Positions 23,045 through 53,803 of a DNA stretch of 64,000 bases are shown here, in pieces. Where the stretch lies: NCBI GenBank assembly GCA_964541145.1, contig CAZIOX010000006.1, forward strand, positions 1,899-65,898, read 5' to 3'. This stretch comes from an uncultured Candidatus Saccharibacteria bacterium (lineage in GTDB: Bacteria > Patescibacteriota > Saccharimonadia > Saccharimonadales > UBA4665). Each line of letters begins with the position of its first letter. Positions within the stretch are counted from its first letter, which is position 1. A model generated the notes under the pieces. The model was given only the letters and a program-made list of their open reading frames with translations. It did not search any database and had not been told where the DNA came from. A program made the translations under genes and the position numbers.

Positions 23045-23240
23045 AAAGTCTATAAATATACCGCCCACTTTGCCGCAATCTTAAGCAAAGAGTCATGTGG
23101 GCACTGACGAATGAAATCGAATTATGTACCGTTCTACTGTACGTCGAAAGATTTATACCAAGGTACAAGGCACACCAATGCCGGTCGTAACTACTGCCGA
23201 TATTCCTTCGGGAAACGAAATAATCGCCATGAGCTGCTAA

Positions 23241-32938: not shown

Positions 32939-34453
32939 TTACTTTTGCTTCCGAGTGGATTTTTTTCGGTGCGGAAGGAACTTGAGCCGCTTTCCTGTCA
33001 CTGCACCCGACTCGCCGCCACCGGCACTGTCGTAGAAAAAGTCGTCTCTACTGTACTGATCATAAGTTATCATGAGGGCACGCGACTCGACGGCACGCAG
33101 TGTTTCGAGCGAGACAGCGACCAAGATCAATATGCTCGTACCCCCGAGACCCACGGCGATATTTGATGGTACAAAGAGCTGCGCCACGATGGGCAACAAC
33201 GCCAGGAGCCCCAGACTAATAGCGCCAAATAAGGTGATCTTGTTGACTGTTTTAGCAAGGTACCGCTCGGTCTGAGAGCCAGAGCGGACTCCTTCCAGGA
33301 AGCCGCCTTGCTTCTGAAGATTTTCGGCGATTTCTTTACTGTTAAACGTAATACTTGTATAGAAAAAGGTGAAAAGAAATACCAGCATAAAGTATGTGAC
33401 AGGATAGATGTAGGCGTGCCAGTCAGCGCTGGCAAATGTCTGAGCAGTCGGACTCTGGAACCAGGTTACCAGGTTTTGCCCTAATTGCTGCCACTGCGCG
33501 TTACTGTGCCCTGTCAAAAGCTGGCCGACGAAGCTCGGTACACTCAGAAAAGCCAGGGCAAAAATGACTGGCACCACCCCAGCAGTAATGAGTTTTACGG
33601 GAAGGGTCGTCGTGACTCCTCCGTAGGCTCGATTACCCTGGACGCGCTTGGCGTAGTTTATAGTAAGCCGACGAGAAGCTTCGTTTAGCATGACGACGAC
33701 CCAGGTTATCAAAATAACTGCCATCAGTATTGCGAGGGCATACCAGAACGACTTTTCATTGATAGGCAGCTCTCGACCAAAAATTTGCCATTTGTTCTGT
33801 TTGTCGTATATGCTTGAGGCGATCTGACTGATGGTGGCTGGTAGCGCGCTTACTATACCTACTGTAATAAGTAGTGAGATACCGTTGCCAACCGATTTTT
33901 CTGTGACAAGCTCACCCATCCACATGAGCAGCATCGAACCACCGGTTAGTGCGGCGACCATCAGGATCCATTGTGAGAGTGATGTGTTGGCAGTAATGTC
34001 GCCAATCCCGCCGACACTTTGAGCGTACTGGCGAACGAGATAAATAGACCCCACTGCCTGGACTATCGCCAGTGGTAAGGTAAGTAACCGAGTATATTGA
34101 TTGATCTTTTTTTGACCAGATTCGCCGTCTTTACGCATGTTTTCGAGTTTCGGAAGTGCTTTAGTGAGCAGCTGCATGATAATACTGGCGTTAATGTATG
34201 GCCCAAGCCCAGCAATCATTATGGAGAAGTTTGCCAGTGCGCCACCACTCAGAACGTTGATGAAGCTCAAAAACTGAGGAGTGTTTTGTGAAGAAAAAAG
34301 ATTTGTCAGCACTTGCTTGAGCGTCTCTGGATCGGCCAGAGGCACGGGTATGTGCGCCAAAATTCGAAATATGAGCAGTATACCCAACACCCCAAAAATA
34401 CGTTTACGCATATCGCCTTGTTTAAACGATGCGCCAATAACCTTCCAGTTCAC
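32939..34453 (-). CDS. secY: Preprotein translocase SecY with ~50-aa C-terminal extension
   Basis: GTG start with a GAGGGG SD. 504 aa and 10 TM helices. The tail reads DQYSRDDFFYDSAGGGESGAVTGKRLKFLPHRKKSTRKQK. Confidence 0.95.
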   Translation of the reverse strand: MNWKVIGASFKQGDMRKRIFGVLGILLIFRILAHIPVPLADPETLKQVLTNLFSSQNTPQFLSFINVLSGGALANFSIMIAGLGPYINASIIMQLLTKALPKLENMRKDGESGQKKINQYTRLLTLPLAIVQAVGSIYLVRQYAQSVGGIGDITANTSLSQWILMVAALTGGSMLLMWMGELVTEKSVGNGISLLITVGIVSALPATISQIASSIYDKQNKWQIFGRELPINEKSFWYALAILMAVILITWVVVMLNEASRRLTINYAKRVQGNRAYGGVTTTLPVKLITAGVVPVIFALAFLSVPSFVGQLLTGHSNAQWQQLGQNLVTWFQSPTAQTFASADWHAYIYPVTYFMLVFLFTFFYTSITFNSKEIAENLQKQGGFLEGVRSGSQTERYLAKTVNKITLFGAISLGLLALLPIVAQLFVPSNIAVGLGGTSILILVAVSLETLRAVESRALMITYDQYSRDDFFYDSAGGGESGAVTGKRLKFLPHRKKSTRKQK

Positions 34454-34494
34454 ACGTAACCCCTCGTTGTTATTTGATAGTGTATCTTTCTGTT

Positions 34495-34523
34495 AGTATA
34501 CACGCTTCGTTTCGGTCTGCAAA
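34495..34523 (-). promoter_or_regulatory. Promoter candidate for secY
   Basis: On the minus strand the sequence reads TTTGCA, 17 nt, TATACT, in the 111-nt gap after the transporter gene. Confidence 0.4.
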
Positions 34524-34564
34524 ACCCACACCTCTGGCAAATGTTCGCTATGTGCGACATGGTT

Positions 34565-35485
34565 TTAGTGCGAGCGCATCACATGGTGATGTTTATGATG
34601 AGACGAATCTTTGTACTGCACGATAAATACGCCCAGCAATATGCAGGTACCGCCGGCCACCATCGCCACCGACATTGTTTCGTGGAGAAATAGTATTGGC
34701 AGCAGTACAGCAACGAGTCCCTCCAAATACACCAGTGCGCTGATTGTGGCCGAACCGATTCGCTCATATGACCAGACAGTCAAAATACGCGAGACGAGTG
34801 AAACGGCCGCAAAACTATATGCAATCGCAAGCAGCCCGCTTGTAGTGATACGTGGCGCTTCCATGTGGCCTATCGACAGCCATAACACGCCGCTCACTGC
34901 CGCAACCACACCGCTCATTGCACCCGTCAGTGCGATGAGCGATACACCATGTACTTGGTTTGCTCTGCTCATCGCAATCGAAACCATGGGGTAACTCAAG
35001 GCATTTATGACACCGCACAGTGTTGCGAAGGGGTAAAACACAAAGGTTCCTTTGTGTTGCAGGGCAAAAGGCAGAAGCGCGACCATCGTTGCTCCGGCTG
35101 CAGCCAGTGTAATCCCTGCAATCGCCCGTCGAGAGACACGCTCGCCATTGAGTTTTACTGAGTACCACACTAACACCACGGGCGAAAGCAGCTGCAAAAT
35201 ACTGACATAACTCGCCTGACTATGCTGTAGCCCTAAAATAAACGCTAAAGATGCAATCGTCATCGCCGCACCAGCTGCCGCTGTCGGGGACAATGCTCGG
35301 CCAAACATAGCCGCGCGTTCACGCCATATCCAAGGCAAACACACTACTGCGACAGCCCCAAATCGTAGTGCATTAAGCAAAAACGGATGCCAGTCTGCAA
35401 CCGCATACCGCATAAACATTGCGTTGGGTGCAGCCAGCAAAACCCCAACCAGCGCAATGATAAACCATGTTTGTTTTGTTTTCAT
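34565..35485 (-). CDS. EamA/DMT-family transporter (10 TM) inserted between rplO and secY
   Basis: I moved the start to ATG 35485 (MKTKQTWFIIALVGVLLAAP). The protein shows two repeats of five hydrophobic helices and ends in a His-rich tail (KDSSHHKHHHVMRSH). Confidence 0.75.
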   Translation of the reverse strand: MKTKQTWFIIALVGVLLAAPNAMFMRYAVADWHPFLLNALRFGAVAVVCLPWIWRERAAMFGRALSPTAAAGAAMTIASLAFILGLQHSQASYVSILQLLSPVVLVWYSVKLNGERVSRRAIAGITLAAAGATMVALLPFALQHKGTFVFYPFATLCGVINALSYPMVSIAMSRANQVHGVSLIALTGAMSGVVAAVSGVLWLSIGHMEAPRITTSGLLAIAYSFAAVSLVSRILTVWSYERIGSATISALVYLEGLVAVLLPILFLHETMSVAMVAGGTCILLGVFIVQYKDSSHHKHHHVMRSH

Positions 35486-35550
35486 GCTATGTCCAGTATA
35501 GCACCACGCAACTCCAAACTCGATATGATGGCGAACACGGTAGAGACAGA

Positions 35551-35603
35551 ACACGCCCAGTGTGATGTACGAGGTCTAACCTCGTACATCACACTGGGCG
35601 TGT
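35551..35603. other. Perfect 24-bp hairpin (5-nt loop) upstream of the transporter gene
   Basis: acacgcccagtgtgatgtacgagg, tctaa, cctcgtacatcacactgggcgtgt. Confidence 0.9.
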
Positions 35604-35630
35604 GTAGGAGTGGGGTGATTAAATATAAAA

Positions 35631-35655
35631 AACAGCGCCTGTGACAGGCGCTGTT
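35631..35655 (-). terminator. Intrinsic terminator after rplO
   Basis: aacagcgcctg, tga, caggcgctgtt form an 11-bp stem. The minus strand continues TTTTATATTT. Confidence 0.7.
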
Positions 35656-35673
35656 TGAGGACGCAATATCGTC

Positions 35674-36141
35674 TTAGTTTTCGGTCTTTGCGATTTTTTG
35701 ACGCATAGGGCGTGGAACAATCGTGACACTTCCACCAGCCTTTTGGACAGCTTCGATCGCGTTGACACTTGCCCCCTGTAGCTGAACAGCAACGTTTTTT
35801 GTAACATCACCCCTGAAGAGCAGTTTAACGCGTGTAAATTCGCTCGTTACCAAACCTGCTTGTGCAAGCGTAGCGTTTGTTACCGTATCGGTGAAGGCAT
35901 TAAGCTGTTCGGTATACACATTTTCTGCCTTTGGCTTCAGACTACGAAACCCCCGGAGTTTTGGCAATCGCTGCATGAGTGGGTTCTGACCCCCTTCAAA
36001 CCCTGGCTTTTTGCTTGAACCAGTTCGCGCACCCTGACCTTTGGTACCGCGTCCGGCAGTTTTCCCCTGTCCAGCAGCAATACCACGACCAACGCGTCTC
36101 GCAGACTTTTTTGGTGCAGAAATCAGTTCATGGTATTTCAT
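35674..36141 (-). CDS. rplO: 50S ribosomal protein L15
   Basis: MKYHELISAPKKSARRVGRGIAAGQGKTAGRGTKGQ. Confidence 0.95.
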   Translation of the reverse strand: MKYHELISAPKKSARRVGRGIAAGQGKTAGRGTKGQGARTGSSKKPGFEGGQNPLMQRLPKLRGFRSLKPKAENVYTEQLNAFTDTVTNATLAQAGLVTSEFTRVKLLFRGDVTKNVAVQLQGASVNAIEAVQKAGGSVTIVPRPMRQKIAKTEN

Positions 36142-36233
36142 TTCTTTACTCCTCGTCCAATTTTTGTTGCGATTTTATCGCTGAAAGCAACAATCATACC
36201 TACAGCTTCTGAGTCAGATGTATGCTGTGTCAT
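36138..36233 (-). CDS. Bridging micro-ORF (31 aa) in the slot where rpmD (L30) normally sits
   Basis: My hand translation is MTQHTSDSEAVGMIVAFSDKIATKIGRGVKK followed by a stop. Its ATG overlaps the rpsE stop (ATGA) and its TGA overlaps the rplO ATG (ATGA). Confidence 0.35.
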   Translation of the reverse strand: MTQHTSDSEAVGMIVAFSDKIATKIGRGVKK

Positions 36234-37000
36234 ATCTTAGACTCCTTCTTTGGGGCGGTTTTTTTGACTACTGGCTTTGTAGGAGTAATTGCCGTTTTCA
36301 CCTCGGATGGTTTTTTAACAGGGAATTCTTTTGCTTCATTTTGTACTGCGGAAACTTTGGTGTCAGCTTTTTTGCCCGCTTGTAAACTAGCGCGATGCTT
36401 TGTGGTTATCCAGTTTTTGCTGGGTACCAATGCTTCGAGTGCTTGAATAGTAGCGTAGGCAATATTCGTTTTGTTGCTGCTGCCCAGTGATTTGCTGAGC
36501 GCATTGCTGACGCCTGCAACTTCTAAAATCGTTCGCACAACGCCACCCGCGATCAAACCAGTACCAGCTGAAGCTGGCATAATGAGTATACGTGCGCCAG
36601 CAACCTTTGCTTCGACCTCGTGTGGCAGCGTGTCTTTGTAGAGCACCACTTTTACGAGGTGTTTTTTGGCGACTTCAGTCGCTTTGCTGACGGCGGCTGT
36701 AACATCTGCGCCTTTGGCAGTGCCAATCCCTACCTTGCCCTTACGGTCACCAACAACCACAAGTGCACGGAACCGGAACCGACGGCCACCCTTCACTACG
36801 CGGGCAACGCGATCAATGTGCACGACTCTTTCGTCGAAAGCTTTTTCTTCGGGAGCTTGCTGATTGCGATTGTCGCGTCGCGAACCACGGCCACTGCCGC
36901 CACCCCTTTGACCACCACGCTGCCCACCACCGTAGCGTCCACCCTGATTTTGTGCAGCCTGTTCGGCTGCAGCTTGTGCAACCTGTGCTTCTTCGGCCAT
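36230..37000 (-). CDS. rpsE: 30S ribosomal protein S5 with G/R-rich N-terminal and K-rich C-terminal extensions
   Basis: The core is ERVVHIDRVARVVKGGRRFRFRALVVVGD. The protein is 256 aa, against about 170 aa for a typical S5. Confidence 0.95.
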   Translation of the reverse strand: MAEEAQVAQAAAEQAAQNQGGRYGGGQRGGQRGGGSGRGSRRDNRNQQAPEEKAFDERVVHIDRVARVVKGGRRFRFRALVVVGDRKGKVGIGTAKGADVTAAVSKATEVAKKHLVKVVLYKDTLPHEVEAKVAGARILIMPASAGTGLIAGGVVRTILEVAGVSNALSKSLGSSNKTNIAYATIQALEALVPSKNWITTKHRASLQAGKKADTKVSAVQNEAKEFPVKKPSEVKTAITPTKPVVKKTAPKKESKI

Positions 37001-37001
37001 A

Positions 37002-37355
37002 TTAGAACTCCAATCCTTTCTCGCGCGCTGCGTCAGCCAAAGCTTTTATGCGGCCATGGTATTTACGACCACTCCGGTCAAATACTATTTTATCAATCTT
37101 GGTTTTTTTGGCACGACTTGCGATCTCTGCGCCAACCCACGTAGCCTTTTCGGTCATCGTTCCAACGGCGTCTTTTGCACCAACAGTTGTAACAGCAACA
37201 AGAGTTTTGTGAGTTGTGTCGTCAATAATCTGAGCGCTGATATTGGCGTTACTTATCGAGACGCTCAGTCGTGGGCGCTCACTCGTGCCCTTCAGGGTTG
37301 CACGAATGCGGTTTTTTCGCTGAGCGCGCTGGACTAATTTTTGGCTAAGGCTCAT
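37002..37355 (-). CDS. rplR: 50S ribosomal protein L18
   Basis: RPRLSVSISNANISAQIIDD...GRKYHGRIKALADAAREKGLEF. Confidence 0.95.
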   Translation of the reverse strand: MSLSQKLVQRAQRKNRIRATLKGTSERPRLSVSISNANISAQIIDDTTHKTLVAVTTVGAKDAVGTMTEKATWVGAEIASRAKKTKIDKIVFDRSGRKYHGRIKALADAAREKGLEF

Positions 37356-37356
37356 G

Positions 37357-37896
37357 CTATTTATCCTTTCCTGACTTACCGGACTTACGCAATATGCGTT
37401 CGTCGACGTACTTTATACCTTTGCCCTTGTACGGTTCTGGTTTCTTAAGGGCACGAATTTCAGCAGCGACCTGGCCGACCTGTTGTTTGTCTATGCCGCT
37501 AATGGTCATTTTGTTCTGCTCCACTACAACCTGGACACCTTGCGGTACTTTATAGATGACATCGTGGCTGAAGCCAATATTGAGCTTCAGGTCGGTGCCC
37601 TGCATAGCCACGCGGTAGCCGACACCGTTTAGTTCAAGCTGCTTGCTGAAGCCTTGGCTGACGCCTTGCACCATGTTGTGTATGAGGGCGCGCATGAGGC
37701 CGTGGGCGGCACGTACCTTGGGCATATCATTTGCCCGGGCGACAGTGAGGACACCGTCCTCAACCTTTACGGTAATATTCTCCAATTGTGGAGTTTCCAG
37801 ATTACCGTTCGCCCCAGACACTTTGATAGCGTCTGAGTCGACAGTGATTGTCACACCGCTTGGGATCTGGATGGGTAGTTTTCCTACTCGACTCAT
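37357..37896 (-). CDS. rplF: 50S ribosomal protein L6
   Basis: MSRVGKLPIQIPSGVTITVD. Confidence 0.95.
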   Translation of the reverse strand: MSRVGKLPIQIPSGVTITVDSDAIKVSGANGNLETPQLENITVKVEDGVLTVARANDMPKVRAAHGLMRALIHNMVQGVSQGFSKQLELNGVGYRVAMQGTDLKLNIGFSHDVIYKVPQGVQVVVEQNKMTISGIDKQQVGQVAAEIRALKKPEPYKGKGIKYVDERILRKSGKSGKDK

Positions 37897-37907
37897 TATG
37901 ATTTAGA

Positions 37908-37975
37908 GTTAAGAAGTATGAGTTATGAGTTAAGAGTTTTATGCTCTTATCTCTTTTCTCTTATCTCTTATCTCT
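37908..37975. repeat. Imperfect inverted repeat built from GAGTTAAGAG / CTCTTATCTC motifs
   Basis: The arms are gagttaagaagtatgagttatgagttaagag and ctcttatctcttttctcttatctcttatctct, with about 22 of 31 positions pairable and a perfect inner 9/10 stem. The motif is the same as in the repeats flanking the four-helix-bundle gene at 53.4-53.8 kb. Confidence 0.7.
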
Positions 37976-38113
37976 CCTTTCCTTTAGTTTACGATTCTTA
38001 TTCATGGAACGTATTATACCGGCCACTGCTCCTGCTATAATTACTGCCCCGAGTAAAATTCCAATAAATGCTTCTTGTCGAACATTATCCATAGCAGTCG
38101 TGGCAAAGTACAT
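37961..38113 (-). CDS. Small membrane protein candidate (50 aa, 1 TM) between rpsH and rplF
   Basis: My hand translation is MYFATTAMDNVRQEAFIGILLGAVIIAGAVAGIIRSMNKNRKLKERRDKR followed by a stop. The ATG lies 4 nt after the rpsH stop, and no SD is seen. Confidence 0.4.
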   Translation of the reverse strand: MYFATTAMDNVRQEAFIGILLGAVIIAGAVAGIIRSMNKNRKLKERRDKR

Positions 38114-38117
38114 AGTA

Positions 38118-38519
38118 TTAGTACACTTGGCAGATTAATTCTCCGCCAACTCCTTGTGCTTTAGCTTCTTCACCGGTCATTAAACCCTTACTCGTTGAAA
38201 TGATGAGCACGCCACGACCTCGTTTGACCTGTGGTACTTCGCGGGCATTTGTGTAGGCGCGGCGACCAGGCTTGCTGAGGCGTTTGATTTCTGTAATCTT
38301 GGCGTTTTCGCCGTCTAGATTGATGGTGATGTGGAGTCGCTTGCCAACAGTAAGGTCTTCGGTGCGAACATCGTGCAGGAAGCCGTTGTTACGCAAGGAA
38401 ATTGCCACATTTTCTTTAATCTTACTGTGCGGTAAGCTTACCTCGTTTTTGCCGACGGCAATTGCGTTGCGGACACGGGTGAGCATGTCGGATATAGGAT
38501 CGGTAGTCGTTACGCTCAT
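38118..38519 (-). CDS. rpsH: 30S ribosomal protein S8
   Basis: MSVTTTDPISDMLTRVRNAIAVGK. Confidence 0.95.
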   Translation of the reverse strand: MSVTTTDPISDMLTRVRNAIAVGKNEVSLPHSKIKENVAISLRNNGFLHDVRTEDLTVGKRLHITINLDGENAKITEIKRLSKPGRRAYTNAREVPQVKRGRGVLIISTSKGLMTGEEAKAQGVGGELICQVY

Positions 38520-38617
38520 ACGTTATCTCCTTTCTGATTTAGCAGAGAGCAGGTAGTAGATGGCAGAAATGCAGCATCCTGATACTTGTTATCTGAAGAA
38601 TGAAGTAAAGCGTTCAT
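38516..38617 (-). CDS. Bridging micro-ORF (33 aa), S14 stop to S8 start
   Basis: My hand translation is [33 protein letters not shown] followed by a stop. Its ATG overlaps the rpsN TAA (TAATG) and its TGA overlaps the rpsH ATG (ATGA). Confidence 0.3.
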   Translation of the reverse strand: MNALLHSSDNKYQDAAFLPSTTCSLLNQKGDNV

Positions 38618-38886
38618 TACCAGCTCGCTTTCGTTACACCAGGGATTTCGCCCTTGCTTGCATGTTCACGGAAGGACAAACGGCTCAGGCCGAACTGTCG
38701 CATGTAAGCATGTGGTCGGCCGGTTTCGACACAGCGGTTCTTCTTACGGGTCGGTGAAGAGTTGCGTGGCAGTTTCGCCAAACCTTCGTAATCACCAAGC
38801 TCTTTCAGTTCTTTACGCTTCGCAGCGTACTGCTCTATCATCTTCAGGCGTTTTTTATCGCGGGCTAGGTTCGATTTTCGTGCCAT
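38617..38886 (-). CDS. rpsN: 30S ribosomal protein S14, long Cys-poor form (89 aa)
   Basis: I moved the start to ATG 38886 ([20 protein letters not shown]). The C-terminus is [27 protein letters not shown]. Confidence 0.9.
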
Positions 38887-38996
38887 TATATAGCTCCTTT
38901 CAGTCGTAGAGTCATGAAGCATGAAGCACCAGTCATGAAATCTGCTTTGCAGCTGGTAACCATACCTTGTCTCTTGTTTCTTGTCTCTTGTCTCAT
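38886..38996 (-). CDS. Bridging micro-ORF / 111-nt repeat element copy 1 (36 aa), L5 stop to S14 start
   Basis: My hand translation is [36 protein letters not shown] followed by a stop. It has an ATGA overlap with the rplE stop and a TAATG overlap with the rpsN start. It is about 80% identical, without gaps, to 43527..43637. Confidence 0.4.
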
Positions 38997-39592
38997 TTTG
39001 ATTCCTTTTCAAACGGCATACCAAACTTCTGCAGCAGTGCCTTACTGTGAGCCTTGTCTTCGCACTTCACGACAAATACAGCTTGCAAGCCGTGCGGCGT
39101 GGTCGTTTCCTCAAAGGTCAGCTCCGGGAAGACGCTCTGATCGGTCAGGCCAATACTGTAGTTCCCTTGCTTGTCAAATGCTTTTAGTTTCACCCCGCGG
39201 AAGTCGCGCAGACGCGGAAGTACGATGTTGATGAGTCTGTCCATAAACTCGTACATTCGCTCGCCCCGTAGTGTCAATCTTAACCCAATCATATTGCCTT
39301 CGCGCAACTTAAAGCCGGCGATAGAGTTTTTTGCGACGGTTTCAACTGGTTCCTGACCAGTGACTTTACGCAGCGTGTTTTTGGCGGCTTCAATCGTCTT
39401 CTTGTCTTCTTTGGCTCGACCAAGACCGACATTGACTACAATTTTTTCGAGCTTCGGCACCTGATGGGCGTTTTTCAGCCCAAGCTCTTTCATAAGCTCT
39501 GCCGCAAACTTCTCGTTGTACTCATTTTTCAGACGAGCAACATACGGTTTTATTGCCTTCTTGGGAGCAGGTTTTTTTGTCGTTTCAGCCAT
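38993..39592 (-). CDS. rplE: 50S ribosomal protein L5
   Basis: [39 protein letters not shown]. Confidence 0.95.
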
Positions 39593-39963
39593 TATAGTAC
39601 CTTCGCTCCTTTCTTAGTCGCAGGCTTCTTTGCTAGAACTTCGACCTTGATTTCCTTGCCGGTTGCCTTGTAGATGCGGGTTTTGCCGCCATCTTTATCG
39701 AGCGTGTAGCCTATGCGTGTTGGCTTCTTGGTGCTTGGATCGACCACAGCAACCTTGCTTACCCAAATAGGTTTCGTAATCTCTAGAATACCGCCTTGCG
39801 GATGTGCTTGGTTCGGCTTCTGGTGCTTTTTGACGATGTTTATACCTTCGACAGTCACCTTATTTTCGGCAGCGTGCGTGGTCAGGACCTTGCCTTGTTT
39901 GCCCTTGTACTTGCCGCTCAGAACTTGTACTACATCACCCTTCTTTAGTCGTATCTTGTACAT
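39592..39963 (-). CDS. rplX: 50S ribosomal protein L24 (possible 12-codon N-terminal extension to 39999)
   Basis: MYKIRLKKGDVVQVLSGKYKGKQGKV starts at ATG 39963. An in-frame ATG at 39999 overlaps the rplN stop (TAATG) and would add [12 protein letters not shown]. Confidence 0.9.
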   Translation of the reverse strand: MYKIRLKKGDVVQVLSGKYKGKQGKVLTTHAAENKVTVEGINIVKKHQKPNQAHPQGGILEITKPIWVSKVAVVDPSTKKPTRIGYTLDKDGGKTRIYKATGKEIKVEVLAKKPATKKGAKVL

Positions 39964-39998
39964 TTTCTTGTCTCTTGTTTCTTGTCTCTTGCTTGTCA

Positions 39999-40367
39999 TT
40001 ACAGTACCTCCGGTGCAAGGCTGATGATTTTGGCATAGCCCATGTCGCGCAGTTCGCGAGGTACCGGTCCAAAAATACGTGTTGCCTTTGGCTGCTTGTC
40101 GTCACCGACAATGACCGCTGCATTATCGTCAAACTTTATGGTGCTGCCATCTTTACGCTTGATTTCTTTCGTGGTGCGTACCACTACGGCACGTACCACT
40201 GATTTCTTTTTTACCCCACCACTTGGGTTCGCTTGCTTGACCGTGGCGGTTATGATGTCACCCACTCGAGCATATCGCCGACGCGTTCCACCAAGCACAC
40301 GTATGCAGAGAATTTCCTTGGCGCCGCTATTGTCGCAGACGACGAGGCGCGTTTCTTGCTGAATCAT
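39999..40367 (-). CDS. rplN: 50S ribosomal protein L14
   Basis: [27 protein letters not shown]. Confidence 0.95.
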
Positions 40368-40480
40368 TATTTGGCTCCTTCTAGTCGCAGAATCATGCAG
40401 CTTGAGTCTTGAGACAGGACAGCTGTTTTAGGGCTGAGAAGCGTTAACCGATGAGACATACTGCTTGATTTGTCATTCAT
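40367..40480 (-). CDS. Bridging micro-ORF (37 aa), S17 stop to L14 start
   Basis: My hand translation is [37 protein letters not shown] followed by a stop. It has ATGA and TAATG overlaps. Its 3' 30 nt resemble the 111-nt elements. Confidence 0.35.
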
Positions 40481-40788
40481 GATTCAGTCTCCTTTTTTGG
40501 CTTATCAGTTACGCCTGGCACTTCTACGGCAGCTTCGACGTGCTTCACTTCGGCAGTTTCAATGATGGATTGCAATGTAAACCTTTTTCGCTTGCTGATT
40601 GGTCGTGTTTCGACCACCACCACCTTGTCGCCGAGCTTTGCTTCGTTCTTTTCGTCATGCGCGATAAACTTTTTGCTCGTAGTATATTGCTTTCGGTAAA
40701 GCGGATGGGTCTTTTTCTCACGAACGGTAATGACAATGGTCTTGTCTGACTTGTCGCTGGAGACGACACCGGTAATTGTCTTGGCCAT
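40477..40788 (-). CDS. rpsQ: 30S ribosomal protein S17
   Basis: GVVSSDKSDKTIVITVREKKTHPLYRKQ. Confidence 0.95.
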   Translation of the reverse strand: MAKTITGVVSSDKSDKTIVITVREKKTHPLYRKQYTTSKKFIAHDEKNEAKLGDKVVVVETRPISKRKRFTLQSIIETAEVKHVEAAVEVPGVTDKPKKETES

Positions 40789-40988
40789 TATTTTGCCTCC
40801 TTGACTAGGTTATCGCTTAAGACGGTCAGCATACGAGCAAGATCCTTGCGCTTATTGCGAACGGTTCGCACATTTCGGTTGTCACCCATGTAAATGTGGC
40901 GACGCAGTTCGGCTATTTCGTCTTTTAACTTGGTTGTTTCTTTCGTGAGCTCAGCCGTGCTGAGTTTGCGAATATCAGCAATTTTCAT
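40788..40988 (-). CDS. rpmC: 50S ribosomal protein L29
   Basis: [35 protein letters not shown] overlaps occur at both ends. Confidence 0.9.
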   Translation of the reverse strand: MKIADIRKLSTAELTKETTKLKDEIAELRRHIYMGDNRNVRTVRNKRKDLARMLTVLSDNLVKEAK

Positions 40989-41401
40989 TATGCGCCCTCC
41001 TTCACCAAGAATTTTGTCTTTACGGGCAATTTATGACTTGCTAGACGCATGGCTTCTCGGGCGGTTTCTTCCGAAACGCCTTGCATTTCAAACAGCACCG
41101 TACCGGGTCGTACTTTGGCCACGAAAAACTCTGGGCTTCCTTTGCCACTACCCATTTTGACGTCAAGTGGCTTACGGGTAACTGGTGTATGCGGGAAAAT
41201 TCTGATCCAGATTTTGCCACCACGCTTGATATAGCGAGTCATGGCCTGACGGCTTGCCTCGATCTGTCGGCTCGTAATGCGTTCGTGCCCTTGTGCCTGC
41301 AGTGCGTATTCACCGTAAGCAATGTAGTTTCCAGCTGTCGCCACTCCACGAACTTTGCCTTTGCGAACTTTGCGGAATTTGGTTCTCTTTGGTAGTAACA
41401 T
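40988..41401 (-). CDS. rplP: 50S ribosomal protein L16
   Basis: I moved the start to ATG 41401 ([19 protein letters not shown]). Confidence 0.95.
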
Positions 41402-41402
41402 C

Positions 41403-42029
41403 TTAGTTTTCCCCCTTGTAGATCCAGACCTTGACGCCGATAACGCCGGCAATGGTCTGAGCCTGTACGCTGGCGAAGTCAATATTGGCACGGATAGTGT
41501 GCAGTGGCACTGACCCAACCGCTTCTTTTTCGCGACGTGACATTTCTGCGCCGTTCAAGCGACCAGCCACTTCTATACGCACACCCTTTGCGCCAGCGCG
41601 CATGGTAGCGGCGCTCGCACTTTTAATTGCTCGGCGGAAACTCATACGGCGTTCGAGCTGATGAGCAATGTTCTCGGCGACAAGCTTTGCATACATCTCT
41701 GGTTTTTTGACTTCCTCGATGTTGACACGAGCTGGTACGGCATAGATTTTTTCGATAGCTGCTTTGAGCTCCTGGGCACCTTGGCCACCACGGCCAATCA
41801 CCACACCAGCCTTGGCCGTTGCGATAGTGACTGTCACGAGGTTCGGTGAGCGCTCTATATCTACTTTATTGATTGCGCCACGTGAACCAAACTTGGCTTG
41901 GATTAGCTTGCGAACCTTGAGATCTTGAGCGAGGTAGTCAGCGTACTGACGCTTGCCAACGAACCACTTACTTCGCCAATCTTTGTTGGCCTGCAAGCGC
42001 ATAGAAATAGGATTTACTTTCTGGCCCAT
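41403..42029 (-). CDS. rpsC: 30S ribosomal protein S3
   Basis: [23 protein letters not shown]. Confidence 0.95.
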
Positions 42030-42418
42030 TACTTGCTCTCCTTCTTTACAGTCGGTTTCTCGACTGCTGGTTTTTTAGCAGGTCGTTGCTCGCCGTCTAC
42101 GAGTACGCGGATGTGTGAGGAACGCTTCATATAGGGCAATGCTCGCCCCATAGCCGCCGGTCGGAAACGCTTCATGCGAGGGCCATGATTTACTGTGATT
42201 TCAGTTATACGAAGTGTGTCTGCCTTGTAGTTGTGATTATGGGCAGCATTTGCCTGTGCACTTTTGACCGTCTTTAGAACGGATAGTGCAGCGCGGCGTG
42301 GGGTGTGTTCAAGGATAACGATGGCGTCTGCAACCGTGCGGCCACGAATGAGTGCCGCAACTGCTGCAACCTTACGTGGGCTCAAACGAACGCCTTTAGC
42401 TTCTGCTTTTACACTCAT
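42029..42418 (-). CDS. rplV: 50S ribosomal protein L22
   Basis: AKGVRLSPRKVAAVAALIRGRTVADAIVILEHTPRRAA. Confidence 0.95.
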   Translation of the reverse strand: MSVKAEAKGVRLSPRKVAAVAALIRGRTVADAIVILEHTPRRAALSVLKTVKSAQANAAHNHNYKADTLRITEITVNHGPRMKRFRPAAMGRALPYMKRSSHIRVLVDGEQRPAKKPAVEKPTVKKESK

Positions 42419-42420
42419 GT

Positions 42421-42693
42421 CTATTTGCCCTTCGCTAACTTCCCGCCATGAGAGCGGAACTTACGGGTTGGGCTGAATTCGCCCAGTTTGTGACCAACCA
42501 TGTTTTCTGTCACGAAAACTGGTACATGCACCTTACCATTATGAACGGCAAAAGTTTTGCCAACAAAGTCCGGTGCAATCGTGCTGGCACGCGCCCAAGT
42601 TTTTATAATGGTGCGATCCTCTGAGCCAAGCGCCGCAACTTTTTTCGCGAGCTTCGGATCGATAAATGGCCCTTTCTTCAGTGAACGACTCAT
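42421..42693 (-). CDS. rpsS: 30S ribosomal protein S19
   Basis: [19 protein letters not shown]...[17 protein letters not shown]. Confidence 0.95.
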
Positions 42694-42696
42694 AGC

Positions 42697-43527
42697 TTAT
42701 TTCCTCTTGGCCGCGTGGCGGCTTCTTACGATCATATTGCTTGTACTCTTACGTCGGCGCGTCTTAAACCCAAGTGTCTTCTGACCCCAAGGGGTACGAG
42801 GCGCTTTGGCCATACGGTGACGACCACCATCACCACCACCGTGCGGGTGATCGACTGCGTTCATGACGACACCACGGACACCAGGGCGCTTTCCCAGATG
42901 ACGGTTGCGGCCGGCTTTACCAATTTTGACATTTTGGTGCTGTTCATTGCCTACGACACCGACAGAGGCAGTGCACACGAGCGCAACTTTCCGAACCTCA
43001 CCACTCGGCATGCGTACCTGGGCATAGTCACCTTCTTTTGCCATCAACATAGCACTGTTGCCGGCACTGCGGACAGCTTGGGCGCCACGACCAGGCTTGA
43101 GTTCGAGTGCGTGAATGGTGGTGCCAACTGGTATATTTTTAAGCGGTAGCCGGTTGCCCATCTCAATAGCGGCCTCGGCGTGAGCTACAAGCTTTTGACC
43201 CTGATGCATGCCACCAGCTGCAAGCACATAGTGGTAGACACCTTTGTCGTCTTTGACGCGGGCAATACGAGCACTGCGGTTGGGATCGTATTCGATGTGT
43301 TCGACAACGCCTTCACCAGAAAAACTGAAGTTTACCACTCGGTAGTGCCGACGGGCACCACCGCCCTGGTGGCGAGTCGTTATGCGACCCTGGTTATTGC
43401 GACCACTGCCGCGCTTCATACTTTTTACAAGTGAGCGTACAGGTTTTTTAGTCGTCACGCCAGAGAAATCTTGACTAGACATACCGCGTCGACCTGGAGT
43501 CGTTGGGTTGTACTGTTTAATCGCCAT
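42697..43527 (-). CDS. rplB: 50S ribosomal protein L2
   Basis: I moved the start to ATG 43527 (MAIKQYNPTTPGRRGMS). Also present: VMNAVDHPHGGGDGG. Confidence 0.95.
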   Translation of the reverse strand: MAIKQYNPTTPGRRGMSSQDFSGVTTKKPVRSLVKSMKRGSGRNNQGRITTRHQGGGARRHYRVVNFSFSGEGVVEHIEYDPNRSARIARVKDDKGVYHYVLAAGGMHQGQKLVAHAEAAIEMGNRLPLKNIPVGTTIHALELKPGRGAQAVRSAGNSAMLMAKEGDYAQVRMPSGEVRKVALVCTASVGVVGNEQHQNVKIGKAGRNRHLGKRPGVRGVVMNAVDHPHGGGDGGRHRMAKAPRTPWGQKTLGFKTRRRKSTSNMIVRSRHAAKRK

Positions 43528-43637
43528 TATGCAGCTCCTTTCAGTCGCAGAGTCATGAAGCATGAGTTACGAGTCATGACAGATGCCATGCAGATGTTCT
43601 CTAGTTCTTGTCGGCTGTCTCTTGTTTCTTGTCTCAT
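43527..43637 (-). CDS. Bridging micro-ORF / 111-nt repeat element copy 2 (36 aa), L23 stop to L2 start
   Basis: My hand translation is [36 protein letters not shown] followed by a stop. It has an ATGA overlap with the rplW stop and a TAATG overlap with the rplB start. Confidence 0.4.
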   Translation of the reverse strand: MRQETRDSRQELENICMASVMTRNSCFMTLRLKGAA

Positions 43638-44059
43638 TTTGATTCCTTCTTACCGACGAGTTTTTTCAGACCCTTCGGCTTGGATACGTTTTCTTCAGAC
43701 TTTTTGTCTGCTTTCTTCGCAGCTTTGGCCTTTTCAGCTTCAGCTTTGGCAAGTTCTTCTTCGGCCGCGGCAAAAAATGGCAAATGGCTTCCGGCTTCCA
43801 GGGTCACATAGGCTTTTTTGGTGTCGGGCTGTGTACCTTTGCGATTGCTGCTGCGTTTGCCAGTTGTATTCATGACGCGCTTTACTTTGCCCTTGCGATT
43901 GACAACTCGAACGCTTTGTACCTTGACGTCAAACTGCTTTTCAACCGCATCTGCCACTTCGTATCTGTTGATTTCACTTGGGATGTCAATAACAAAGGTG
44001 TTCGTCGTTTGGCTTAGACCAAAGGCCTTCTCACTCAGTCGTGGTTTGAGAGTATGCAT
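43634..44059 (-). CDS. rplW: 50S ribosomal protein L23 with K/A/E-rich C-terminal extension
   Basis: I moved the start to ATG 44059 (MHTLKPRLSEKAFGLSQ), 1 nt after the rplD stop. Confidence 0.9.
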   Translation of the reverse strand: MHTLKPRLSEKAFGLSQTTNTFVIDIPSEINRYEVADAVEKQFDVKVQSVRVVNRKGKVKRVMNTTGKRSSNRKGTQPDTKKAYVTLEAGSHLPFFAAAEEELAKAEAEKAKAAKKADKKSEENVSKPKGLKKLVGKKESK

Positions 44060-44060
44060 A

Positions 44061-44720
44061 TTATTTCTCCTCCTTCGCGACTTTTGCGACTGGCTTGAGC
44101 CAAGATTCAACTGTTTTAAGTGCATCGGTCGTCAGCACAATGTGGTCGGCATTCAAAATGTCGAATACGTTGAGGTAGCTGGCGCTCACCAGCATGACAT
44201 TTTGGAGGTTAGCAGTCGCGTTTACGAGTTCTGGTGTTTTACTATCCACGACGACGAGAGCGTCGCGCGTGACACCGAGTTTGATGAGCAGTTTTGCCAT
44301 TTCGGCAGTTTTACCTTCTTTGCTCGAAAGTTTTTCGACGACAATGAGTTTGCCATTTTGATTGGCTAAGCTCAGTGCCTGTCGCAGCGCCACGCGCTTG
44401 CTGGTAGTGGAAATCTTGACAGTGTAGTTTTCTAGTCCAGTAGGACCAAAGACAATACCACCGCCACGCCAAATTGGGTTGCGTGAGCTACCGAAACGCG
44501 CCCGACCGGTGCCCTTCTGCTTCCATGGCTTCTTACCGCCACCACGAACGAGTCCACGAGTTTTTACGACGGCGAGATTCTCGCGACCATTTGCAAGATA
44601 CGCATCATAGGCTTGTTTGAGTAACTGATGGTTTTTTACTTCCACGCCGAACACTTCACGGCTTAGTTTGGCTGCGGTTGCAGCTTTGGTGCCTGCAGCA
44701 CTAAATGTAGGAGTAGCCAT
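44061..44720 (-). CDS. rplD: 50S ribosomal protein L4
   Basis: [29 protein letters not shown]. Confidence 0.95.
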
Positions 44721-44869
44721 TAGAACGCACCTCCTTTTTGGATTAGCGTGTCACCTCTGACCTGTGTGGTAACAGTAGTAATGAACCTGTCACTATTGGT
44801 GCGAGATTCATGACTAATGGTTACAGGCGAATGTTTGGTGACAGGTAACAGGGAAATGGATAATTTCAT
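44720..44869 (-). CDS. Bridging micro-ORF (49 aa), L3 stop to L4 start
   Basis: My hand translation is MKLSISLLPVTKHSPVTISHESRTNSDRFITTVTTQVRGDTLIQKGGAF followed by a stop. The ATG lies 2 nt after the rplC TAA, and the TAA overlaps the rplD ATG (TAATG). Confidence 0.3.
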   Translation of the reverse strand: MKLSISLLPVTKHSPVTISHESRTNSDRFITTVTTQVRGDTLIQKGGAF

Positions 44870-44871
44870 AG

Positions 44872-53374: not shown

Positions 53375-53404
53375 GAGTTAAGAGATAGGAGATAAGAGAT
53401 AAGA
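53375..53404. repeat. Inverted repeat, left arm (3 nt from the stop of the four-helix-bundle gene)
   Basis: gagttaagagataggagataagagataaga. 28 of 30 positions match the reverse complement of 53774..53803. Confidence 0.9.
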
Positions 53405-53407
53405 CTC

Positions 53408-53773
53408 TTATTTCGTACCATTTGTTTTGTTAATTAAGCCTGTTAGTACTTTGTGGCACGCTATGCTCGCTTCATCCAGCTCTTGGTATACATGATTTTG
53501 TATATAGCGAACGTCCTTTGCCACCAATAGCTGCGCTTGAACCTCATGCAATGAAGCCCGCGCCATATCGTAAAAGTGCGTTCGATCTGCCATAGTTCTT
53601 CGGCCAAATCCTTCTGCTATATTCGAAACAATTGATACGGTTGATCGCCGGATTTGATTGGTAAGACCGAAAATCTCATCTTTTGGAAAATCTTTGGTAA
53701 TCTTATAGATTTCTAAAGTTAAAGCATGTGACTTTTGCCAAGCAATGAGGTCTCGAAATGTATGGATGCTCAT
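53408..53773 (-). CDS. Four-helix-bundle protein of the '23S rRNA intervening-sequence protein' family
   Basis: FRDLIAWQKSHALTLEIYKITKDFPKDEIFGLTNQIRRSTVSIVSNIAEGFGR matches the family signature (W-Q-K-A, Q-x-R-R-A-x-x-S-I-x-x-N-I-A-E-G). 121 aa. Confidence 0.8.
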   Translation of the reverse strand: MSIHTFRDLIAWQKSHALTLEIYKITKDFPKDEIFGLTNQIRRSTVSIVSNIAEGFGRRTMADRTHFYDMARASLHEVQAQLLVAKDVRYIQNHVYQELDEASIACHKVLTGLINKTNGTK

Positions 53774-53803
53774 TCTTAACTCTTATCTCATATCTCTTAA
53801 CTC
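53774..53803. repeat. Inverted repeat, right arm (abuts the ATG of the four-helix-bundle gene)
   Basis: tcttaactcttatctcatatctcttaactc. Confidence 0.9.

Follow-up and report, generated by a model that had tools for sequence, protein, structure and literature searches.

Palindromic repeat inserts at ribosomal-protein gene junctions of Candidatus Saccharibacteria are maintained as open frames bridging stop and start codons

The window, a 64,000-nucleotide stretch of a Candidatus Saccharibacteria genome (hereafter W), carries a ribosomal-protein (r-protein) cluster in which long spacers separate several genes (Table 1), the remaining junctions being -1 to +3 nt. A sequence-only reading had claimed that every long spacer between 36138 and 44869 is a micro-ORF running from the upstream stop to the downstream start, and we found all of these micro-ORFs on the minus strand. 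Its further statements, that the other junctions are short or overlapping with the sole exception of S8>L6, which holds a 50-aa TM ORF, and that the last codons of each micro-ORF spell the SD of the next gene, also agreed with our analysis, since K/E/R-G-x is encoded at the C terminus of every listed micro-ORF. The pattern is real in this range, but it also extends beyond it: the spacer between EamA and SecY is bridged by an ORF whose start lies 4 nt past the EamA stop and whose end overlaps the GTG start of secY (34453) as GTGA. One supposed spacer, L14>L24, turned out to be an N-terminal extension of L24, whose ATG at 39999 sits in a TAATG overlap with the L14 stop; the extension also occurs in the relatives L003 and L002, in the latter without an internal Met. 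Nor are the spacers separate cases, because L23>L2 and L5>S14 are alike and share motifs with L14>L24 and S8>L6.

Table 1. Spacers, inserts, and related elements of W
Feature	Position	Strand	Length and type	ORF
S7>fusA cargo-bearing element	53375..53803	-	30-nt inverted repeat	enclosed 23S-rRNA-IVS-protein gene
L3>L4 insert	44720..44871	-	151-nt spacer (44871-44721); family-C hairpin element	bridging, 44869-44720, 49 aa; ATG 2 nt past the L3 TAA, TAATG end on L4
L23>L2 insert	43527..43637	-	106-nt spacer; family-A element	bridging, 36 aa; ATGA...TAATG
S17>L14 insert	40367..40480	-	109-nt spacer	bridging, 37 aa; ATGA...TAATG
L24 N-terminal extension	39964..39999	-	(GAGACAA)-type heptamer repeats	12 in-frame codons
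L5>S14 insert	38886..38996	-	106-nt spacer; second family-A copy	bridging, 36 aa; ATGA...TAATG
S14>S8 insert	38516..38617	-	97-nt spacer; family B, hairpin core deleted	bridging, 33 aa; TAATG...ATGA
S8>L6 spacer	37897..38117	-	221 nt; TM ORF, then hairpin	not bridged
S5>L15 insert	36138..36233	-	88-nt spacer	bridging, 31 aa; ATGA...ATGA
EamA>SecY spacer	34450..34560	-	111 nt	bridging, 36 aa; orphan peptide

We compared junction gaps in 80 Saccharibacteria loci, in which relatives are labelled L001, L002, and so on. Most relatives have tight r-protein junctions (-4, -1, or +1 to +3 nt), and spacers of 80 to 300 nt, at junctions that differ by species, are found in W, L001 to L003, L005, L017, L024, L026, L033, L038, and L058. 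The suggestion that the spacers are inserted sequence was borne out, as relatives have TAATG or ATGA overlaps at the same junctions: TAATG overlaps are present at L23>L2 in L004, L005, L011, and L012, at L5>S14 in L002 and L004, and at S5>L15 in L001 and L002, whereas the gap is 1 nt at L5>S14 in L001 and at S17>L14 in L002 and L003, and 2 nt at L3>L4 in L001, L002, and L004. When junctions are set side by side, the 5' edge of the spacer retains the SD and TAATG/ATGA, and its 3' edge consists of a new SD and TAATG. Besides, blastn placed the spacers in families of imperfect hairpin repeats across junctions and genomes, about 25 sequence clusters in total. Since the occupied junction varies by species and the spacers belong to repeat clusters, they are lineage-specific insertions; the sequence-only reading had missed that they are hairpin-repeat families, that is, mobile-element-like inserts.

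Family A, with five copies and zero indels, is represented at L23>L2 by a (GAGACAA)n 5' arm, a (TCATGAC)n 3' arm, and then SD and TAATG. The L5>S14 copy shows 77% to about 80% identity to it (over 126 nt for the latter value) and 83% identity to the copies in L003, which has three that are 91-97% identical. The S17>L14 insert has the 3' SD module CTGCGACTaGAAGGAGC in common with family A, and clusters with the spacer at the same junction of L001 (94 nt; 15 nt different). Copies homologous to the L3>L4 insert were found at L23>L2 of L001 and L22>S3 of L002, and this insert contains the SD of the L4 ATG (44720), AGGAGG, 9 nt upstream. The S14>S8 insert is 86% identical to that of L003 outside one clean 66-nt (22-codon) deletion, across which the ORF is still open. 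The S5>L15 insert is an orphan sequence, and the same junction is occupied by a family-A copy in L003. Elsewhere, a nested palindrome of 72 nt is found in either orientation, each of which leaves the ORF open, in-frame fusions are seen in the L24 extension (W, L002, and L003) and at L4>L23 and S19>L22 of L058, and non-hairpin inserts encode 69-97 aa in L005, L010, L011, L025, and L058. Structure was significant (z < -2) in 29 of 64 spacers, including L3>L4 of W (z = -2.9 to -3.0), but not in the degenerate L23>L2 hairpin of W (+0.5 to +1.4), in S14>S8 (+0.3 to +0.5), or in S5>L15. As most translated spacers of W fold no better than shuffles, the word "hairpin" is better taken as a statement on their origin than on their current form. 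A search for marks of mobility returned no transposase, donor element, or clear terminal inverted repeats with target-site duplication, and the (T)AATG direct repeat on either side may owe its presence to function instead of target-site duplication.

Bridging was evaluated statistically with long spacers from 15 genomes (69 initially, 64 after artefact loci were dropped), against dinucleotide shuffles of either the whole spacer or the spacer with its ends fixed. Conceptual translation runs through 57 of the 64, compared with 2.6 ± 1.5 in shuffles and 7.2 ± 2.5 with ends fixed, so that the shuffling check proposed in the sequence-only reading revealed a huge enrichment; strict bridges numbered 47 of 69, versus 1.1 ± 1.0 and 4.6 ± 2.0, respectively. 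Exact bridges make up 48 of the 64 spacers, with the stop overlapping the downstream start in 43 and the start overlapping the upstream stop in 33. When junction-by-cluster events are counted as independent, 46 of 51 are translated through (40 of 42 without S8>L6). For W, the per-spacer bridge probability was 0-0.17 under whole-spacer shuffling and 0.12-0.21 with ends fixed, and the six ends-fixed values multiply to approximately 1.6e-5, although its spacers are not mutually independent. Stops take up 203 and 173 of the 2286 codons in the other two sense frames, indicating that the spacer sequences are not stop-poor. Outside the r-protein cluster, the 64-kb window has about 17 further same-strand spacers of at least 80 nt, all of them unbridged. 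We confirmed that the bridging pattern is real and far above chance; the view that seven spacers are nonaccidental stands against the shuffles, except that L14>L24 is not one of them.

The reading frame is also conserved. The gap length modulo 3 equals 1 in 49 of 69 spacers, and indels within families, those in heptamer arrays included, measure 3, 15, 66, 72, and 84 nt, in line with the frame and length conservation that had been put forward for orthologous spacers. Stops in homologous spacers of relatives, named beforehand as what would speak against the claim, are rare: neutral substitution on its own would have left 12.4 of the 38 family members intact, yet 37 are open throughout, and old copies with 15-50 differences from the consensus are still open. 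The inserts are repeats that were inserted, and their openness and phase are kept by selection in a context-dependent manner.

The dependence on context is illustrated by S8>L6, where five of the seven untranslated spacers lie; in insert-free relatives, this junction alone possesses its own SD, within a gap of 11-19 nt. In W, an orphan 50-aa TM ORF (38113-37961), for which no homologue was found in the other loci compared, accompanies an untranslated hairpin (about 37975-37905; z = -3.1) whose arms, (GAGATAA)n and (CTCTTAAC)n, contain TAA; this hairpin type also occurs in L001, L002, and L003. Untranslated hairpins are tolerated at this junction within the same operon. For the genome-wide distribution of the elements, the sampling covered 64 kb of W and, from one complete genome, 60 kb. 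In a 961-kb genome, a family also found at r-protein junctions bridges three gene pairs (an unknown gene and an MBL-fold gene, the transketolase N and C subunits, and an ABC ATPase and permease), and a fourth copy, which is the strongest hairpin (-58 kcal/mol), lies in an uncoupled 173-nt gap with stops in all three frames and without the SD module. In W, the arms of the S7>fusA element (53803-53774 and 53404-53375; 93% complementary) are of the same heptamer type and show 83% identity to the S8>L6 arm. They enclose a cargo gene (53773-53408) matching PF05635 (Pfam E = 1.8e-36), the SD and ATG of fusA follow the 3' arm, and neither of the 45-nt flanks is bridged.

Taken together, we consider it probable that stop/start overlaps are colonised by palindromic elements resembling Rickettsia palindromic elements (RPEs), MITEs, or IVS, and that these survive there only in the form of bridging mini-cistrons, which is consistent with the termination-reinitiation relay proposed from the sequence. 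Several families of imperfect hairpins of 60-170 nt, many with arms of ~7-nt repeats, have inserted lineage-specifically at the TAATG and ATGA overlaps that join translationally coupled Saccharibacteria genes. At the 5' edge, two ancestral features remain and now start the mini-cistron, namely the SD within the final part of the upstream gene and the start overlapping its stop; the 3' edge of the insert brings a new SD and, 5-9 nt later, a stop overlapping the downstream ATG. A ribosome ending the upstream gene might then reinitiate immediately, read through the insert while melting the hairpin, terminate on the downstream start, and reinitiate once more, so that the insert would be nearly neutral for downstream expression. 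At coupled junctions, copies gaining stops or frameshifts would be purged by selection, whereas copies in uncoupled intergenic DNA may close freely. We infer that the ORFs are translated, that selection acts on termination-reinitiation in preference to hairpin melting or anti-polarity alone, and that the elements are actively mobile. In E. coli and Haloferax, coupling breaks down once the spacing reaches 20-38 nt (PMC10666635), and the end geometry of the mini-cistrons is known to support it, but most downstream genes have their own SD. Of the translated spacers, 86% have a good SD ahead of the downstream start, at a median distance of 7 nt; de novo initiation might therefore be enough, and the hand-off may be unnecessary or not the sole initiation route. 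Sequestration of the SD and start is only marginally higher than at ordinary tight junctions (0.61 versus 0.54; p = 0.04), which leaves strict RBS masking unsupported.

The same SDs, 5-9 nt from the start, would fit a second, less probable explanation, in which the benefit is continuous ribosome coverage: the hairpin is melted and the RNA covered, preventing RNase III cleavage, Rho-dependent polarity, or pausing, and downstream genes initiate mainly from their own SD. This accords with untranslated hairpins being the most structured (mean z = -3.8 versus -1.8) and with long double-stranded stems, in IVS as in Correia elements, being a classical target of RNase III (PMC4990558, PMC10969869). 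However, it does not explain why the stop falls on the downstream start in 43 of 48 exact bridges rather than anywhere beyond the hairpin, or why ORFs outlast the hairpin, as in S14>S8 of W after the 66-nt core deletion and in family A of W with z near 0; moreover, the untranslated hairpins at S8>L6 apparently do not break the operon. It is quite unlikely that the bridges merely record a historical filter without present function, by which inserts just past the start of an essential gene survive the moment of insertion only if in frame and open and are seen today as young relics. In-frame fusions such as those of L24 and L058 do exist, and the L003 family-A copies are young, judging from their identity, but diverged copies stay open, and later indels and nested insertions come in multiples of three; besides, most copies carry the stop, SD, and start module, with which openness would be unneeded for survival unless constraint were ongoing.

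The sequence-only reading had also allowed for a class of conserved micropeptides, which could be, for example, small ribosome-associated or membrane peptides. Several micro-ORFs are indeed called by gene finders, and the 69-97-aa non-hairpin inserts and the 50-aa TM ORF of W could be real small proteins, yet we reject such a class as very improbable. The peptides are translated palindromic DNA, a single junction carries differing families by species (five clusters in six genomes at L3>L4), the invariant residues fall on the SD module (LLNQKG = CTGCTAAATCAGAAAGGAG), and the family-B peptide of W lost 22 codons; the W peptides have no homologues in the 80 loci and no Pfam domains, and they form unnamed clusters of one or two members or are absent among 15 billion proteins. 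Least credible of all is a role of the spacers in regulation, as r-protein autoregulatory leaders, attenuators, or other regulatory RNA, or as internal promoters or terminators, with incidental ORFs, for although r-protein operons elsewhere have structured autoregulatory sites and many inserts are structured, an Rfam search of the cluster gave no family match, promoter-like sites were at expectation (7 versus 7.8 ± 2.9, none in a spacer on the coding strand), the only noncoding terminator-like hairpins of the coding strand follow L15, the presence, position, and family of inserts differ among close relatives, nonribosomal operons carry the same families, and an incidental ORF cannot yield the observed excess of bridges.

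Several known systems resemble the bridging mini-cistrons in part. In Beggiatoaceae and cyanobacteria, heptamer (TAACTGA) direct repeats lie immediately upstream of starts, including those in r-protein operons (PMC4679880); a 7-nt periodicity is found here as well, and the 3' arm of S8>L6 has TAACTCA units, but those repeats have stops in several frames and neither a hairpin partner nor a bridging ORF, and a tie between the two is speculative. Like MITE, Correia, ERIC, REP, BIME, and neisserial REP2 sequences, our elements are short, nonautonomous, multicopy inverted repeats that form RNA hairpins and can lie within operons; Correia elements are cut by RNase III, and REP2 supplies an RBS and start fused to genes (PMC10969869, PMC3184786). 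In contrast to those palindromes, the elements described here could be traced to neither a parent IS nor a transposase and showed no unambiguous target-site duplication, and selection acts on an element-spanning ORF, a trait undescribed for those families. The S7>fusA element, a 429-nt unit with a 30-nt stem around a PF05635 gene, is similar to 23S rRNA IVS with an S23p/PF05635 ORF, of which that of Coxiella measures 428 nt and is excised by RNase III (PMC4990558). In its arms it shares a heptamer-arm family with the S8>L6 hairpin. However, its place is an mRNA operon, with protein genes on both sides, and not a 23S rRNA helix, and the short bridging elements have no cargo gene.

Both ends of the mini-cistrons match the -4/-1 geometry of coupling at ATGA and TAATG overlaps (Huber et al. 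2019, 2023), which couples translation experimentally and fails when the genes are 20-38 nt apart (PMC6728339, PMC10666635). Known coupling joins two real genes directly, whereas here two serial junctions flank a repeat-derived filler ORF of 31-97 codons, and our literature search found no described precedent for a relay through such an ORF. RPEs, as well as pneumococcal BOX, RUP, and SPRITE and Bordetella repeats, can fuse in frame with host ORFs, and RPEs are multicopy palindromes of ~100-150 nt in a reduced genome whose open frame is tolerated in translated sequence (PMC10969869, PMC3184786). They belong to a different phylum and are likened here by description, the shared traits being the in-frame fusions to L24, L23, and L22 and the nested palindrome that is open both ways. 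Nevertheless, RPEs lie inside genes and join the host protein, whereas the elements described here occupy gene junctions with an SD and stop/start module, and most of them (48/64) form a separate stop-to-start mini-cistron.

The r-protein genes from L3 to L15 all lie on the minus strand of the window (45510-35674), and the ORF list and junction sequences bore out a sequence-only reading according to which the long spacers between them are filled by micro-ORFs that overlap, or nearly overlap, both neighbors (see the table below; X>Y denotes the interval from the stop of gene X to the start of gene Y). The remaining junctions of the cluster are short or overlapping (-1 to +3 nt), as had also been claimed, and the ATG at 39999 in L14>L24 adds 12 in-frame codons to L24. 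This L24 extension (39964-39999 in the source genome, W) is a basic N-terminal stretch derived from about five GAGACAA heptamers, which is also found in two relatives (L002 and L003); since the L002 extension contains no internal Met, it must be part of mature L24. The exception named in that reading, S8>L6, indeed holds a 50-aa TM ORF (38113-37961, minus strand), which has a basic tail and a single predicted TM helix, begins 4 nt past the S8 stop, and runs into the 5' arm of the S8>L6 hairpin, where it ends. No homologue of this ORF was present in 80 r-protein loci from other genomes, and its only Pfam match was sub-threshold (FeoB_associated, E = 0.0056).

Micro-ORFs and the intervening-sequence (IVS)-like unit in the window
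Feature	Position	Strand	Size or description
L3>L4 micro-ORF	44869-44720	-	49 aa
L23>L2 micro-ORF	43637-43527	-	36 aa
S17>L14 micro-ORF	40480-40367	-	37 aa
L5>S14 micro-ORF	38996-38886	-	36 aa
S14>S8 micro-ORF	38617-38516	-	33 aa
S5>L15 micro-ORF	36233-36138	-	31 aa
IVS-like unit	53375-53803	-	429 nt, between rpsG (S7) and fusA
PF05635 "23S rRNA intervening-sequence protein" gene	53773-53408	-	Pfam E = 1.8e-36

Shuffling supported the claim that the bridging of six of the seven W spacers is not due to chance. The bridging probability per spacer was 0 to 0.17 when whole spacers were shuffled and 0.12 to 0.21 when their ends were kept fixed; simple multiplication of the six ends-fixed values gives about 1.6e-5, although the spacers are not independent: L23>L2 and L5>S14 share about 80% identity across 126 nt, and four spacers have a purine-rich heptamer motif in common. 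Outside the cluster, the only other bridged spacer was EamA>SecY (34560-34450), and about 17 same-strand spacers of at least 80 nt were unbridged. In W, folding better than that of shuffled sequences was limited to L3>L4 and the S8>L6 hairpin, which rules out that every W spacer is a stable hairpin; the remaining W inserts are decayed hairpins. A copy at 28937 of D6, the repeat motif of the shared 3' SD module, was ruled out as an element, being the SD of the L13>S9 junction.

Several other features of the window were observed. A DnaJ-domain gene (49407-48997, minus) lies between tuf and rpsJ and breaks the usual tuf-S10-L3 linkage, and the interval from rpsJ to rplC holds, also on the minus strand, genes for a GNAT acetyltransferase (48346-47903) and a 502-aa protein without a Pfam match (47657-46149), together with a 106-aa membrane-like ORF (46066-45746). 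In the region 34565-35673 (minus), an EamA-family transporter gene is located between rplO and secY, and in the L15>EamA spacer (MFE, -73 kcal/mol) a near-perfect hairpin of over 20 bp (35600-35554) lies downstream of a canonical intrinsic terminator (35656-35630). At 22683-23047, a 158-nt unit is present in about 2.3 tandem copies (100%, 100%, and 98% identity) starting inside the 3' end of tRNA-Tyr (22618-22703), which may reflect either duplication of an integration site or an error of assembly.

An S17 scan with one genome per species yielded the 80 loci, nearly all from Candidatus Saccharibacteria, of which the closest were 82 to 87% identical to W in S17, and a junction map was built by locating 19 r-protein genes and secY in every locus. 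In most species the junctions measured -4, -1, or +1 to +3 nt; spacers of 80 to 300 nt occurred in a minority (W, L001, L002, L003, L005, L017, L024, L026, L033, L038, and L058), and at different junctions in different species. The contigs of insert-bearing Saccharimonadales derive from samples of the wastewater and activated-sludge type. Tight junctions are thus the rule and the positions of long spacers vary among species, indicating that the latter are lineage-specific insertions. Side-by-side alignment gave the ancestral junction as "...aaggagNNNaaaTAATGgc...". Where an insert is present, its 5' edge retains the ancestral SD and the stop-overlapping ATG, now the start of the micro-ORF, and its 3' edge provides a new SD and, after 5 to 9 nt, a stop overlapping the downstream ATG.

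The sequence-only reading had overlooked the repeat nature of the spacers, which became apparent when they were compared as DNA and grouped into families. The inserts form recurring families across junctions and genomes (25 sequence clusters; families of 3 to 17 members) and fold as long imperfect hairpins, the arms of which are often arrays of a unit of about 7 nt, e.g., (GAGACAA)n/(TCATGAC)n or (ACAAACT)n; 29 of 64 spacers folded significantly better than shuffled sequences (z < -2). Identity was 80 to 85% across species and reached 91 to 97% among the three family-A copies of L003, each at a different junction, a near-identity that points to recent spread. In L038, a 72-nt palindrome is nested in two family-F copies (11844-11917 and 12951-12996) in opposite orientations, with 82% identity to the reverse complement; each adds exactly 24 codons, and the bridging ORF is open in both. 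A metagenome DNA scan with the family-B 3' module (CTCTGCTAAATCAGAAAGRAG) returned one chance match within an unrelated coding region. Taken together, these comparisons show that the spacers are inserted palindromic repeats.

We then scored bridging strictly, requiring the ATG to lie at -4 to +5 relative to the stop of the upstream gene and the ORF to end no more than 3 nt from the start of the downstream one. By this definition, 47 of 69 spacers of at least 80 nt were bridged, against 1.1 ± 1.0 expected from whole shuffles and 4.6 ± 2.0 with ends fixed. A refined count admitted short overlaps and in-frame fusions and left out L076 and L080 (non-Saccharibacteria) as well as L009 (CAVRJI010000001.1), a frameshifted MAG whose apparent spacers are coding in every other locus and whose map lacks several r-protein genes; this pattern fits assembly indel errors, so the locus is unfit for junction statistics. 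In the refined count, 57 of 64 spacers were read from sequence as translated through (48 exact, 6 overlapping, 2 fusions, and 1 near), far more than the shuffle expectations of 2.6 ± 1.5 and 7.2 ± 2.5. Counted as independent junction-by-cluster events, 46 of 51 were translated through, or 40 of 42 without S8>L6. Stops made up 8.9% and 7.6% of codons in the other two sense frames, and the spacer sequences are therefore not stop-poor.

The length of the inserts is also constrained. The gap left a remainder of 1 on division by three in 49 of 69 spacers, i.e., its length is phase-locked, and indels within families measured 3, 15, 66, 72, and 84 nt, including those inside heptamer arrays, and thus keep the frame; indels in multiples of three were among the checks that the sequence-only reading had proposed. 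S14>S8 of W, for example, is 86% identical to its orthologue in L003 but has lost 66 nt in a clean deletion, which took the hairpin core and kept the ORF. Divergent copies also mostly remained open: among all 38 family members, and not intact copies alone, 37 were open compared with 12.4 expected at a neutral rate of 5.8%, the stop-creating share of the substitutions observed in the two other frames. Of the 48 exact bridges, 33 have a start that overlaps the stop of the upstream gene (-4 in 17 and -1 in 16), the rest starting at 0 to +8, and 43 have a stop that overlaps the start of the downstream gene (33 TAATG-type and 10 ATGA-type), the other 5 ending 1 to 2 nt short of it. These results show that selection maintains an open frame across the whole interval between the upstream stop and the downstream start.

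This selection depends on context. Five of the seven untranslated spacers lie at S8>L6, the one junction that in insert-free relatives is an 11- to 19-nt gap with its own SD; the hairpin arms there, (GAGATAA)n, include TAA. S8>L6 is also a hotspot of 1.2- to 7-kb insertions (L030, L031, L036, L040, L049, L065, L066, L069, L078, and L079), mostly in rumen and gut Saccharibacteria, and the untranslated hairpins are found there in the W clade. A search of public data with a family-B peptide profile gave nine unnamed clusters, three of them on one 961,725-nt contig (Ga0500616_0000005), where family-B copies bridge an unknown gene and an MBL-fold gene, the N and C subunits of transketolase, and an ABC ATPase and an ABC-2 permease; GAPDH>RpiB of the same contig is bridged by a different element. 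Openness is therefore not specific to ribosomal operons. A fourth family-B copy on this contig precedes a gene without an SD, in a gap of 173 nt; it has the strongest hairpin (-58 kcal/mol), all three of its frames are interrupted by stops, and the SD/stop-start module is absent. The contrast between this closed copy and the open bridging ones shows that openness belongs to copies at tight junctions and not to the element itself.

Bridging was likewise seen at junctions with copies in the alpha operon (L17>L13, S11>S4, and rpoA>L17), and S3>[54 aa]>L16 recurred in independent metagenome contigs. One metagenome contig carries the chain L3>[53]>L4>[37]>L23>[33]>L2>[127]>[30]>[110]>S19, in which consecutive ORFs overlap or are separated by no more than 3 nt. 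In L089, a metagenome contig, the interval from rplB to rpsS holds two unannotated genes of 127 and 110 aa, which a 30-aa ORF connects (2905-3699), and micro-ORFs are present at L3>L4, L4>L23, and L23>L2.

With regard to mechanism, the sequence-only reading had proposed either a relay of termination-reinitiation events or a class of conserved micropeptides; this interpretation is partly supported, in that comparative evidence backs the relay and the micropeptide class is rejected. In the relay, a ribosome that finishes the upstream gene would begin again at the retained ancestral start, read through the insert, and, on terminating at the downstream start, reinitiate there. Overlaps of -4/-1 permit termination-reinitiation, which a spacing of 20 to 38 nt nearly abolishes (PMC10666635; PMC6728339), so a 100-nt insert would uncouple its neighbors unless itself translated. 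Both ends of the mini-cistrons have the stop/start geometry of TeRe-coupled pairs (-4/-1 or a few nt).

Translation through the insert might instead serve to maintain ribosome cover on the RNA and to prevent the hairpin from folding, a role that cannot be separated from hand-off of the ribosome and that fits the presence of an SD of their own in 86% of translated spacers and an only marginally raised SD sequestration (0.61, versus 0.54 at ordinary tight junctions; p = 0.04). However, coverage would not require the ORF stop to fall precisely on the downstream start, nor the ORFs to persist after hairpin loss, and as judged from these sequence features, precise stop placement and persistence favor hand-off. 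Masking of the RBS by the hairpin was set aside as the main mechanism, the difference in sequestration being marginal. Promoter- and terminator-like sites were not enriched in a scan, and no spacer contained one on the coding strand; Rfam covariance models at the gathering score found only four tRNAs in the 64-kb window, with no hit in the cluster and no r-protein leader. As for a conserved small-protein family, each peptide is merely the translation of a palindrome: the family found at one junction differs between genomes (L3>L4 has five clusters in six genomes), the invariant residues coincide with the SD module, and the W peptides were singletons or absent in a 15-billion-protein collection, without homologues in the 80 loci or a Pfam match.

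Besides the repeats, non-hairpin ORFs of 69 to 97 aa without obvious mutual similarity overlap both neighboring r-protein genes at L2>S19 and S8>L6 in L005, L5>S14 in L010 and L058, S8>L6 in L011, and L2>S19 in L025. These ORFs may encode true small proteins that are carried along in the operon.

It is possible, if somewhat doubtful, that the inserts constitute a mobile palindromic guild specialised for translationally coupled Saccharibacteria operons, each copy being a portable "stop-start adaptor." Such a copy would reuse the ancestral start, keep its hairpin body open, and supply an SD and a stop overlapping the next start; the version with an IVS protein would be the autonomous form and the short hairpins the non-autonomous forms of one element type, and untranslated copies could be RNase III cut sites segmenting operon mRNAs. 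If so, a two-step termination-reinitiation relay would hide selfish DNA from operon stoichiometry.

The inserts amount to a natural replicated experiment on translational coupling: stop/start overlaps were invaded independently at least 42 times, also in essential ribosomal operons and between genes for subunits of the same complex, and in nearly every case the insert was retained as an ORF phase-locked to both neighbors. They provide population-genetic evidence of strong selection on uninterrupted ribosome passage across junctions in reduced genomes, as well as ready-made constructs bearing on termination-reinitiation versus independent initiation, and they suggest a compact design of synthetic coupling elements. 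Natural competence has been demonstrated in Saccharibacteria (PMC10633639). They also show a route by which selfish palindromic DNA can persist in genomes of about 1 Mb with almost no intergenic space, and they explain a class of "hypothetical" 30- to 60-aa genes called by gene finders in Patescibacteria, with the caution that bridging ORFs are fillers and not micropeptide families.

The IVS-like unit has, alone among the copies in the window and loci, a cargo gene, and in this unit only, a 30-nt inverted repeat (93% complementary) encloses a PF05635 (S23p) ORF, like the long stem of a 23S rRNA IVS; its arms are of the same heptamer type as those of the S8>L6 hairpin, and no IVS-protein gene was found in the 80 loci. 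It is strikingly like the 428-nt IVS of Coxiella, which is excised by RNase III (PMC4990558). Unlike that IVS, which sits in a 23S rRNA helix, it lies in an mRNA operon between rpsG and fusA, and the window holds no rRNA.

Like MITEs, the inserts have terminal inverted repeats, with arms pairing over 20 to 30 nt (clearest in the nested 72-nt element), and they show presence/absence polymorphism and near-identical copies, as in family A at three junctions of L003. (T)AATG stands at both ends of many copies, the same bases being functional stop/start overlaps, and the intergenic fourth copy of family B described above (locus L083) has no flanking (T)AATG; no unambiguous target-site duplication was found. 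No transposase was seen in the window or loci. Neither palindromic repeats or MITEs in Saccharibacteria/CPR nor bridging cistrons across inserts had been described in the literature searched.

Closest in behavior are the Rickettsia palindromic elements (RPEs) and other in-frame repeats. RPEs are multicopy, hairpin-forming palindromes of about 100 to 150 nt, as are the inserts here; this likeness is one of behavior, and the host phylum here (Patescibacteria) is a different one. RPEs and other in-frame repeats become part of host proteins (PMC10969869; PMC3184786), whereas the inserts are mostly separate cistrons at junctions (48/64), in-frame fusions amounting to only 2/64 plus the L24 extension. 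The inserts are in-frame palindromic repeats combined with probable termination-reinitiation coupling, each of which is of a known kind.
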